Source: Candidatus Woesearchaeota archaeon (lineage in GTDB: Archaea > Nanobdellota > Nanobdellia > Woesearchaeales > GW2011-AR4). From it: a stretch of 32,386 nt of DNA. Shown in pieces: positions 21,589-23,928 of this stretch (positions are counted from its first letter, which is position 1; every line of letters starts with the position of its first letter). Made by a program: the position numbers and the translations under genes. Below the pieces are notes generated by a model. That model was not told the DNA's origin, made no database searches, and was given only the letters and a program-made list of their open reading frames with translations. The DNA lies in assembly GCA_016192955.1 (NCBI GenBank), contig JACPTD010000016.1, forward strand, positions 1 through 32,386, given 5' to 3'.

Positions 21589-21644
21589 AAAAAATGAAGA
21601 ATATCTTTTCTATTTAAAATTTTGCAATAAGCAAATCAACAACC

Positions 21645-21652
21645 TTTAAATA
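21645..21652 (+). promoter_or_regulatory. TATA box of the tRNA-Trp gene
   Basis: TTTAAATA ends 25 nt before the mature tRNA 5' end. Confidence 0.65.
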
Positions 21653-21677
21653 ACTAAAACAAATTCTCTATGTTGGC

Positions 21678-21840
21678 GGGGACGTCGTATAAAGGAGCAA
21701 TCCGTACAACCTGGTTATTATCGCCGGCTCCAGTATTGGAGCGTTGAGCTTTTAGCGATGAAAGAAAATTGGCGATACCGGCTGATCTTTGCAAGAAATT
21801 GCTAAGAGTCGAAATCAGAGTTCAAATCTCTGCGTCCCCA
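21678..21840 (+). tRNA. trnW: tRNA-Trp(CCA) with three introns (21693-21709 at 15/16; 21734-21776 at 37/38; 21785-21813 at 45/46)
   Basis: Spliced sequence GGGGACG TC GTAT AACCTGGTTA TTAT C GCCGG CTCCAGA CCGGC TGAT CAGAG TTCAAAT CTCTG CGTCCCC A folds as a cloverleaf. Anticodon at 21730-21732; no encoded CCA tail. Confidence 0.92.
21734..21776 (+). ncRNA. Putative minimal intron-encoded box C/D guide RNA for Cm34 of tRNA-Trp
   Basis: TTGGAGC (21736-21742) is complementary to GCTCCAG. D-like box TTGA at 21744-21747 and C-like box GCGATGA at 21755-21761. The fifth nt upstream of the D box pairs with C34. Confidence 0.6.
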
Positions 21841-21867
21841 TTTTCTCCATACAAAAAATCAGCAAAT

Positions 21868-23928
21868 CTAATAATAAACTTCCTGTTCTTTGTTTGTTTC
21901 TTCGCTTAAATCCTTATTATTGCCTTGCAAGTATTTAATAACCCCGAAAGATAGGCCTATTAAAGCAAGTATAATGGCAAATCCTATCAAAATCGCTTTT
22001 AAAATGGCTTTGAGACTTGCGCCCAGCAATCCTCTTTTTGCCACAATGACATCCCCTTTTAAATGAATCTGCGCTAATGCCTTTTCATTGTCCTTGATTG
22101 TAACAACAAACGTCTGCTCGCCTATCGCGTTCCCTTTTGAGGAAGCATACAGGTATATTGTCTTTGACTCTTTTGGCTTTATGATAAAGGCGTTTGACTC
22201 CTTCAATCTCAAATCAGCCCAGTTTGCGCCATCCATAAGCAAGGTGTAAGTTTTTGCATCATTCCCCTCATTTGTTAAAATCAGAGGGTATATTACCTCG
22301 CTGCCGTCATTTTTCATGTTTTGTCTTAATAGGGGCGCATTTATCACAAGCCTGTCACTCACAAACTGCCTGGCTTGATCACTCTTGCCTAGAATAAAAA
22401 CAGGAAACTCCTTGACTTCGCTCTCGCTTCCAGACTGGGAAACTATCTCCAGCCTTAGGGTGTAAGTTCCTGTCGGCACATTATCAGAAATTTTCAGCGC
22501 AAAATCTTCTTTTGCTTCAGGAAGCTTGCTGTTTTTAATGTTGCCTAAAAACTTTGTTGATGAAACTTCCAGCTCCGGTATGCTGATCTTTGCGCTTATG
22601 CCGTCAAGGGGAACAACTCCAAGATTTTTAAAATTCAACGTCACAACAAGCGATTTGCCTGCTTCTGCATTGCCCTCAGGGCTTAGTAAAACGCTGCTTA
22701 TAATGAAAGGAAATTTCTTCTGGCTTATTTTCAGGCCGTAAAGCTTCTCTTCTGAATTTCCCTCTGCATCAATAACTTTTACCCTGAGCTTGAAGCTGTT
22801 TTGCTCAAATTGTCCTATCAAAGGCAGCTCAAGGTCTTTAACTGTGTTTTGTCCATCGAGCACGTCAAATGTTGTCGTGGCATCTGCAACAACATCCCCA
22901 TTTTCAAATGCAAGCACAGCGTCAACATGGGCATCCTCAACATCCTCAAGAGATGTAAGCCTTACTTTCAGGTTGAGCTTTTTTTCGCCTTGGTCTATTA
23001 CGACAAAATTATTCTCGCCTTCTGCCAGAATCTTATTTTCAACCTCTACATTGTCTATCGAAACGTCCAAAGCCCTGCCGCCTGCGCCGCCAGCTGTTCC
23101 ATCCCTTCCACGCATTTGCATGCCGTATGTCTGCTGAACAAAATCCCCTTCAGCATCAATAATTTTAACGGTTAATTCAAAAGAATTGCTTTGCCTCAGC
23201 CTGTCTATAAGCTCCAGCCTGAGCCCTCTTGCGAGGGTATTGCCGTCTTGCAGATTGAAATTTGGAGACGAGTCTGCAATAACATTGCCGCTCCTCAAGT
23301 CCCTAAGCACAGCTTCGACACGGGCATTTTCCAGGTCTTCCAGAGCAGTAAATTCAACCAAAACATCAAAATTATCGCTTTCATCAATGAAATTTGGACT
23401 CGATTGCGCAACAACCCTGCCATTTACCCTTACCCTGTCTATTGAGACGTCAAAGGTGCCCCTTCCAATCCTTCCGCCTGTGAACCTTAAGCCGTAATTT
23501 TGCGTCCTTGTATTGCCATCTGCGCCAACAACTCTTATATCAAGCCTAAAATCGCTCTGCCTTCTGAGCGAATCTATAAGACGAAGGCTTAACGCCACTA
23601 CGCTGCTTTGGTTTGTCCTCAGCAGGAAAGTGCCGCTTGAATCGGAAATTGTATTGCCGGTGCTTGAGTCTGTTAAAACAGCCTCGACATGCACATTTGA
23701 AATATCATTTAGAGCTGTGAGGCTTACAACGACATCCAAATCGTTTGTGTCTTGCAGAAAGTTTGTCCTGTCCCGTGCAAAAGTATTGCCATTTACCCTT
23801 ACCCTGTCTATTGAGACGTCAGATGCGGAAAATGAGTCAGATGAAGCAGCAAGGGCATAGGGCGCACTGCTAAATAAAATTCCAAAAGCCAGCAAAAATG
23901 CCGTCAAAGCAAAAATCTTTTTATTCAT
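21868..23928 (-). CDS. Membrane-anchored surface protein: three tandem ~120-aa repeats, a CARDB/COG1361-like region and a C-terminal TM helix
   Basis: Signal peptide ending ALA; DVSIDRVRVNG / DVSIDNVEVEN repeats; NLGVVP...GTYTLRLEI; C-terminal hydrophobic helix. An identical 35-nt repeat occurs at 23418-23452 and 23787-23821. Confidence 0.8.
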   Translation of the reverse strand: MNKKIFALTAFLLAFGILFSSAPYALAASSDSFSASDVSIDRVRVNGNTFARDRTNFLQDTNDLDVVVSLTALNDISNVHVEAVLTDSSTGNTISDSSGTFLLRTNQSSVVALSLRLIDSLRRQSDFRLDIRVVGADGNTRTQNYGLRFTGGRIGRGTFDVSIDRVRVNGRVVAQSSPNFIDESDNFDVLVEFTALEDLENARVEAVLRDLRSGNVIADSSPNFNLQDGNTLARGLRLELIDRLRQSNSFELTVKIIDAEGDFVQQTYGMQMRGRDGTAGGAGGRALDVSIDNVEVENKILAEGENNFVVIDQGEKKLNLKVRLTSLEDVEDAHVDAVLAFENGDVVADATTTFDVLDGQNTVKDLELPLIGQFEQNSFKLRVKVIDAEGNSEEKLYGLKISQKKFPFIISSVLLSPEGNAEAGKSLVVTLNFKNLGVVPLDGISAKISIPELEVSSTKFLGNIKNSKLPEAKEDFALKISDNVPTGTYTLRLEIVSQSGSESEVKEFPVFILGKSDQARQFVSDRLVINAPLLRQNMKNDGSEVIYPLILTNEGNDAKTYTLLMDGANWADLRLKESNAFIIKPKESKTIYLYASSKGNAIGEQTFVVTIKDNEKALAQIHLKGDVIVAKRGLLGASLKAILKAILIGFAIILALIGLSFGVIKYLQGNNKDLSEETNKEQEVYY

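Follow-up and report, generated by a model that had tools for sequence, protein, structure and literature searches.

A 43-nt tRNA-Trp intron as a probable minimal, single-K-turn box C/D-type methylation guide in Woesearchaeales

Intron 2 of a tRNA-Trp(CCA) gene in a 32,386-nt stretch of Woesearchaeal DNA (the window) is probably (about 0.75, judged from sequence comparison) a minimal box C/D-type methylation guide that is built into the pre-tRNA and consists of one K-turn and a 5-7-nt antisense element. Work in vitro has led to the view that archaeal C/D RNPs methylate efficiently and at the right site only when two box pairs are juxtaposed. If the reading is true, a single-K-turn guide that is conserved order-wide and recurs in several tRNAs would contradict the two-pair requirement with a natural example, and structural and synthetic studies would gain a minimal RNP. 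With guide and target in one transcript, the system would be a clean one for the cis-versus-trans question in intron-guided tRNA methylation, and it could show how methylation and splicing are ordered.

The tRNA-Trp gene and its three introns

The gene carries introns in the D-loop, at the canonical 37/38 site and at the 45/46 site. Its parts, all on the plus strand, are as follows.

21645..21652, plus strand: TTTAAATA, a TATA-like box and likely archaeal promoter some 30 nt before the tRNA 5' end
21678-21840, plus strand: three-intron tRNA-Trp(CCA) gene; acceptor stem 21678-84 / 21833-39, discriminator A 21840
21678-92, plus strand: exon 1
21693-21709, plus strand: intron 1, 17 nt, D-loop; BHB with bulge AAA, 4-bp helix GUAU/GUAC and bulge AAC
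21710-33, plus strand: exon 2
21734-21776, plus strand: intron 2, 43 nt, canonical 37/38 site
21777-84, plus strand: exon 3
21785-21813, plus strand: intron 3, 29 nt, 45/46 site; canonical BHB read from sequence
21814-40, plus strand: exon 4

The map is based on relatives that lack one or another of the introns and on BHB logic. Homologous tRNA-Trp loci were found by BLAST in 29 relatives. At the point of intron 1, relatives without this intron (L012, L014, L015) have the sequence GTATAACCTGG, and relatives without intron 3 (L031, L025, L030) proceed from TGAT directly into the T-stem. Intron 1, the helix and bulge of which also appear in the minimum free energy (MFE) fold of the precursor, can alternatively be placed at 21691-21707 or 21692-21708 with identical mature RNA. 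The BHB of intron 3 has a central helix of C40-C43 (21779-82) with GUCG (21808-11; GCCG in relatives), the bulges UG/A and AA/A, and an outer helix of UCUU with AAGA. Removal in silico of 21693-21709, 21734-21776, and 21785-21813 restored the cloverleaf and yielded a 74-nt RNA that ARAGORN called as tRNA-Trp(cca). An earlier note on this DNA had placed a 43-nt intron at 21734..21776, and these borders proved right. Boxes TTTAAATAA and TTTATATAA, which are similar to TTTAAATA, lie at the same distance from the tRNA in the loci of several relatives.

Because of its three introns, the gene is missed by ARAGORN and Rfam: the unspliced gene gave no ARAGORN call and, in the window scan, no Rfam match at the gathering score, and an Rfam E-value scan of 21600-21900 returned a weak partial tRNA match and no C/D family. 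In the whole 1.2-Mb genome, ARAGORN with intron search reported only 12 tRNAs, 10 of which bear introns; thus, heavy disruption of tRNAs is the rule in this genome. Most tRNA genes of the lineage are probably multi-intron and unannotated, and the exon map together with the covariance model described below is a route to the numerous tRNA genes of these genomes that escape standard tools. T-loop introns also occur in relatives (e.g. L007, L009, L014).

Proposed guide, boxes, and K-turn of intron 2

Read from 21723, the anticodon arm with its intron has the layout GCCGG CUCCAG / UAUUGGAGCG UUGA GCUUUUAGC GAUGA AAGAAAAUUGGCGAU / A CCGGC, in which the slashes mark the splice sites. The following elements are distinguished.

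21728..21733, plus strand: anticodon-loop nucleotides C32-G37; proposed methylation target C34 at 21730
21736..21742, plus strand: guide UUGGAGC with core UGGAG (21737-21741), antisense to G31-G37 (21727-21733)
21744..21747, plus strand: D'-type box UUGA, the non-bulged K-turn strand, one nucleotide after the guide; sheared pairs predicted via G21746 and A21747
21748..21756, plus strand: C-stem hairpin GCUUUUAGC, 9 nt, which closes the K-turn; the stem covaries
21757..21763, plus strand: C'-type box with 3-nt bulge G-A-U (21757-59), sheared G21760 and A21761, then A21762 and A21763

As the earlier note had proposed, the guide TTGGAGC pairs with tRNA positions 31-37, forming six Watson-Crick pairs plus G37.U21736, and G21739, the fifth nucleotide upstream of the UUGA box, faces C34 as required by the N+5 rule. 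The note's C-like box, GCGATGA, is indeed found at 21755-21761, but its GC belongs to the hairpin stem, and covariation as well as box variation make (G)AUGA-AA the better description. A21762 and A21763 are able to pair with U21745 and U21744. A scan of the window for the combined pattern GGAG-N3-TGAG-N5-20-C-N-ATGA gave one match, compared with 0.02 expected from 100 shuffles.

Covariation was evaluated in an alignment of 23 anticodon-arm-plus-intron sequences from 23 genomes, drawn from the 29 loci found by BLAST after one identical duplicate, four introns of more than 60 nt, and locus L027 were left out. No sequence deviates in the CTCCAG of the anticodon loop, the GGA of the guide, the GA of the first box, or the A.GA of the second. 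The three pairs of the stem that links the boxes persist through changes on both sides, and the middle pair of the hairpin is UA in 13, CG in 8, and GC in 1 of the 23 sequences. The covariation score of the whole proposed structure was reached by none of 500 shuffles and exceeded those of all slid controls. Without guidance, RNAalifold predicted the anticodon stem, the helix between guide and anticodon loop (guide with U33-A36), and the hairpin.

A larger set comprised the tRNA-Trp loci of 77 genomes (29 from BLAST, 27 from a search of the order, and 21 from a phylum-wide search). Guide, both boxes, and the spacing from guide to box are the same in 76 of the 77, a count that overstates independence since the relatives are kin; the exception, in genome G010 (L027), is a 16-nt intron without the motif. 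A parser passed 74 of these 76 loci, and two were judged by eye, namely L013, with a poorly paired hairpin, and L017, with an insertion in the hairpin loop. As the parser demands ATGA and at least four of five pairs in the N+5 register, these features are not independent and some of the counts are partly circular. Of the 74 parsed loci, 69 have TGGAG at positions 7-3 upstream of the box; the D'-type box is ATGA in 57, CTGA in 8, TTGA in 6, ACGA in 2, and AAGA in 1; the hairpin is closed by G-C in 72; and the first bulge nucleotide before AUGA is G in 63, A in 8, and T in 3.

A variable first bulge nucleotide, a retained AUGA, and a covarying stem fix the register of the K-turn. The hairpin is thus predicted to be the canonical stem and N-A-U the three-nucleotide bulge, followed by a GA that would be sheared against the GA of xUGA. 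In this arrangement a box C-type and a box D-type element together form a predicted K-turn, which reads as an internal C'/D' motif with the guide 5' of D'. The box consensus is RUGAUGA/CUGA, and a K-turn consists of tandem sheared G.A pairs, a 3-nt bulge, and a canonical stem. Intron 2 departs from this consensus in having UUGA and an A instead of U after the sheared GA.

A covariance model (R1) built for the motif matched (E <= 0.01) 124 of the order's 151 genomes, the matches coming from more than 100 families, and 96 of the 115 genomes that are at least 90% complete. In a phylum-wide draw, 92 of 151 genomes matched, including seven from other orders of the class. Omission of genome G168 (locus L041), which is flagged as unpublished, changes the order-wide count to 123/150 and the count of inspected loci to 75/76. 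The earlier note had asked for conservation of guide and boxes in relatives, and both the inspected loci and the model bear it out.

Its statement that there is only one motif pair and one guide is true of intron 2. No second box pair (terminal C/D plus internal C'/D') occurs in 21734-21776. The sequence CTGA at 21782-85 in the 3' exon was considered as a D box and rejected, because it is not conserved (relatives have GGAT, TAAT, or CTAA). The tail of intron 2 has no stretch complementary to A38-C43, which is present in 11 other loci (L005 not among these), so that the pair of guides for nt 34 and nt 39 that characterizes sR50-type introns is not found in intron 2.

Several relatives have longer tRNA-Trp introns. 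L017 (genome G020) contains about 140 nt inserted in the K-turn hairpin loop, giving an intron of 186 nt, and L029 has an extended stem of 41 nt. A common 33-nt insert with a GCAAC...GUUGC hairpin lies between splice site and guide in L017, L026, and L028. Introns with tails of 25-32 nt (L045, L052, L089, L092, L096, L100, L104) contain an antisense element to A38-N43 whose sequence covaries with the stem, then, three nucleotides on, a UCGC-like conserved tetramer and, ending 4 nt before the 3' splice site, a CUGAUGAAGA-like motif. This arrangement may represent a second guide or box. A second K-turn formed from the CUGAUGAAGA-like motif or from UCGC did not fit: N+5 is obtained only if UCGC is taken as the box, but UCGC lacks GA.

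Related introns in other tRNA genes

The guide of tRNA-Trp is unable to covary because the anticodon is fixed; therefore, covariation evidence for the guide has to come from other tRNAs, mostly in other genomes. Twenty weaker matches of model R1 from other genomes of the order (L065-L084) were fetched, and all 20 proved to be anticodon-arm introns of other tRNAs with the same single K-turn.

tRNA-Leu(CAA), eight loci: guide UUGAG, nt 34 at N+5
tRNA-Met(CAU), eight loci: guide AUGAG or UUGAG, nt 34 at N+5
tRNA-Cys(GCA), three loci: nt 39 at N+5; 7, 7, and 6 of 7 pairs
tRNA-Leu(UAG), one locus of the twenty: nt 39 at N+5; 6 of 7 pairs

The UGGAG of the Trp guide is replaced by UUGAG or AUGAG in all 16 introns of tRNA-Leu(CAA) and tRNA-Met. 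At guide positions 2-8, five of these introns form 7 of 7 pairs, ten form 6, and one forms 5, and the N+5 register for nt 34 is the best or tied for best in 15 of the 16. In the introns directed at nt 39, the guide duplex begins in the last two or three intron nucleotides and continues through A38 into the 3' side of the anticodon stem.

The source genome has its own nt-39 K-turn intron in a tRNA-Leu(UAG) gene on contig C31 (4599-4751, minus strand; L085/L188), where 6 of 7 pairs are formed. The guide of this intron, GGUGUU, lies upstream of AUGA; its partners are the final intron nucleotide, A38, C39, and C40, which places C39 at N+5. ARAGORN wrongly labels this gene as tRNA-Lys. Among 30 loci fetched with the C31 gene, nine parsed as tRNA-Leu(UAG) genes with a K-turn intron; the remainder comprised two genes without introns, 15 genes for other tRNAs, and four that were unparsed or had shorter introns. 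In the nine tRNA-Leu(UAG) K-turn introns, as in the three of tRNA-Cys, nt 39 at N+5 is the best register, and eight of the nine pair at positions 2-6. A compensatory change is seen in L201, in which the last intron nucleotide has changed from C to U and guide position 3 from G to A; in L216 the pair at position 3 is lost and the duplex extends to nt 41-42. In the tRNA-Leu(UAG) gene of genome G035 (L203), two Gs of the nt-39 guide apparently come from the exon, namely G36 and G37, which immediately precede the 5' splice site.

These retargeted guides are the strongest evidence for the guide reading and, as far as sequences can tell, the signature of a box C/D-type guide: as the anticodon changes, the guide changes with it, and nt 34 or nt 39 is kept at N+5. 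The earlier note's proposal of a C/D-type guide is supported accordingly. According to PMC2584109, the intron guide of Haloferax tRNA-Trp methylates positions 34 and 39. That the sister guides are aimed at the same two positions is our main ground for taking the Trp intron to be a methylation guide rather than a mere structured intron.

The guide might instead need to be excised first and then, linear or circular (the earlier note had suggested the excised circle), act in trans on mature tRNA-Trp or on further pre-tRNA-Trp molecules, an alternative that we regard as unlikely yet as the most serious. In-vitro work on Haloferax favours trans action (PMC2584109, citing Singh 2004), archaeal tRNA introns and C/D RNAs are described as circles (PMC7994747), and the Trp guide pairs with exon nt 31-37 only, so that spliced tRNA would also be a possible target. 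A duplex of 5-7 bp, however, would hold poorly between separate molecules. In tRNA-Leu(UAG) and tRNA-Cys the nt-39 guides include the final two or three intron nucleotides in their duplex, so that at least these need an unspliced substrate, and the covariation of helix A, described below, points to the structure of the intact precursor.

Proposed mechanism and comparison with known systems

The 3' end of intron 2 and its partner in the tRNA are the following.

21771..21776, plus strand: 3'-terminal hexamer GGCGAU of intron 2, with two alternative pairings
21720..21725, plus strand: tRNA nt 24-29 (AUCGCC), partner of the whole hexamer ("helix A"), from the MFE fold and covariation

In the MFE fold of the whole precursor, helix A and the guide hairpin both form (z = -3.6). 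GGNN-type intron ends are found in 39 of 72 loci, and in these 137 of 156 helix A pairs at positions 26-29 are possible; shuffled tails averaged 121 and peaked at 132, so that none of 2000 reached 137, with the caveat that two of the tail positions served to define the class. In the 39 loci, pair 26:n-2 is CG (16), AT (10), TG (4), GT (2), or GC (1), and pair 27:n-3 is GC (22), AT (6), or GT (6). In the other pairing, GGCG of the hexamer faces C35, C34, and C32 in a weak central BHB helix with 3 of 4 pairs (C32-G, C34-G, C35-G, and the mismatch U33 x C). Introns 1 and 3 have a 4-bp central helix with two 3-nt bulges, and intron 2 is without an outer BHB helix. Its central helix likewise has mostly 3 of 4 pairs (56 loci) or 2 of 4 in 73 relatives, and the anticodon-loop nucleotides pair better with the guide than with their BHB partner. 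In distant relatives the intron 5' end appears, on reading of the sequence, to pair with the intron's own tail as an outer BHB helix, often overlapping the UGG of the guide. The central helix of intron 3 (21779-21782 with 21808-21811) uses the 3' strand of the anticodon stem; thus, intron 3 is cleavable only while that stem is open.

The proteins for such a guide are encoded: genes for fibrillarin and Nop5 are adjacent on contig C44 and L7Ae is on C42, as the earlier note's check for C/D proteins had called for. EndA is encoded by one gene. Nop5 (340 aa) aligns with residues 100-374 of Pyrococcus Nop5 with short gaps only, the coiled coil included, and a Nop5 without the dimerising coiled coil was rejected on this alignment. 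Since the coiled coil is kept, a single-K-turn RNA would fill one side of a Nop5 dimer, or a dimer may be shared between two such RNAs.

We propose that L7Ae binds the K-turn of intron 2, that Nop5-fibrillarin would then dock on the L7Ae-bound K-turn, and that fibrillarin would 2'-O-methylate C34, the nucleotide opposite the fifth guide position. In the proposed methylation-competent precursor the anticodon stem would be open: the tail of intron 2 would hold nt 24-29, the guide would cover nt 32-36, and intron 3 would take up nt 40-43. Subsequent refolding would close the anticodon stem and leave C32-C35 in a weak helix with the intron 3' end, and this form would show the splice sites to EndA. 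An open-stem guide conformer followed by refolding into the BHB would place methylation before splicing. Features that count against the guide reading include the single box pair, the off-consensus boxes, and the short duplex of 5-7 bp. Canonical archaeal guide duplexes are longer, about 10-12 bp.

More tentatively, and with less than even confidence, we suggest a natural "half-mer" C/D RNP in Woesearchaeal and related archaea, in which single-K-turn introns of at least five tRNA species would program Nm34 or Nm39 in cis and a conformational switch would enforce methylation before splicing. In this three-intron gene the switch would be set off once intron 3, by which nt 40-43 are tied up, has been removed.

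L7Ae binds K-turns of several unrelated RNAs (PMC5539422). It is conceivable, though improbable, that the K-turn recruits L7Ae only as an RNA chaperone or fold-lock and that the antisense element masks the anticodon loop or times splicing, with no methyl transfer. The presence of a single K-turn and the two mutually exclusive conformers (guide and helix A versus BHB) would suit such a role, but masking leaves unexplained why nt 34 or nt 39 lies exactly opposite guide position 5 in five tRNA species, these being the known guide-methylated positions of Haloferax tRNA-Trp (PMC2584109). That intron 2 is a decaying, non-functional remnant of a dual-guide box C/D intron, as its shortness, its lack of a terminal box pair and of an nt-39 guide, and the extra antisense stretch to nt 38-43 in a few longer-tailed relatives might suggest, is very improbable, because a core kept with compensatory changes in 124/151 genomes and more than 100 families is not expected of a relic and purifying selection is already evident.

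The preferred reading, a methylation guide within the precursor, was compared with known systems, of which the published euryarchaeal tRNA-Trp introns and the Nanoarchaeum tRNA-Met intron come closest. At least 29 archaea are reported to have a tRNA-Trp intron that acts as a guide and carries both C/D and C'/D' pairs (PMC2584109), and known tRNA-Trp intron guides have a median length of about 65 nt (PMC4090602). Intron 2 resembles the euryarchaeal pre-tRNA-Trp guides (the 103-nt intron of Haloferax volcanii and Pyrococcus sR50) in its 37/38 site, in the antisense element 5' of an internal D'-type box, in C34 at N+5, in the same three encoded proteins, and in a guide pairing that competes with the BHB (PMC2584109, PMC7994747). 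It differs from them, by description, in having 43 nt, one K-turn, one guide, and no terminal boxes, where the euryarchaeal type has two box pairs and guides Cm34 and Um39, and in a 3' end that pairs with tRNA nt 24-29.

A second DPANN case is the 66-nt intron that sits in elongator tRNA-Met of Nanoarchaeum equitans, which is described as stable, abundant in RNA-seq, and a "potential guide" (Randau 2012, PMC3491384). Like intron 2, it is a non-dual-guide tRNA intron with one box C-like motif, one box D, and a hairpin; unlike intron 2, as far as the description goes, it lies in tRNA-Met, is 66 nt long, and has a hairpin of six GC pairs. Engineered single-site ("hemi") box C/D RNPs, which share with intron 2 the combination of one K-turn and one guide, are described as active in vitro but losing site specificity (Hardin & Batey 2006, PMC1635284). 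These RNPs are synthetic, trans-acting, and non-specific, whereas the target of intron 2 is tethered in cis by a 3-4-nt loop, and this tether might supply the missing specificity. In Pyrococcus and Haloferax, trans-acting Cm34 sRNAs for tRNA-Met and tRNA-Leu(CAA) have the same targets as the sister introns of this order (PMC7994747, PMC2584109); there they are separate genes with two motifs, and here the guides are intronic. The tRNA-Met guide, "always exonic" according to PMC2584109, is thus intronic in this order. A search of a literature collection with few subscription journals found no account of single-K-turn tRNA-Trp introns in Woesearchaeota or DPANN.

The genome was also scanned for other guides. 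Regular-expression scans for canonical two-motif C/D sRNAs gave no match with a strict pattern (0-1 in shuffles) and six with a looser one (1-5 in shuffles). The absence of canonical sRNAs from these simple scans weighs against the guide reading, and it would reflect either degenerate boxes or few classical guides in the lineage. A generic "xTGA-hairpin-NATGA" pattern was not enriched in the genome (103 matches, compared with 84-102 in shuffles). In a genome scan for self-targeting, the Trp intron was the only meaningful recovery. Two short sequences, one beginning TGTCAAAATTCTCTAAGAGAA and the other TTCTGCACTTTTGGTGA, each recur in near-identical copies on several contigs (C5, C17, C69, C89, C93, C122, C124; C7, C40, C89) and look like dispersed repeats or mobile-element ends.
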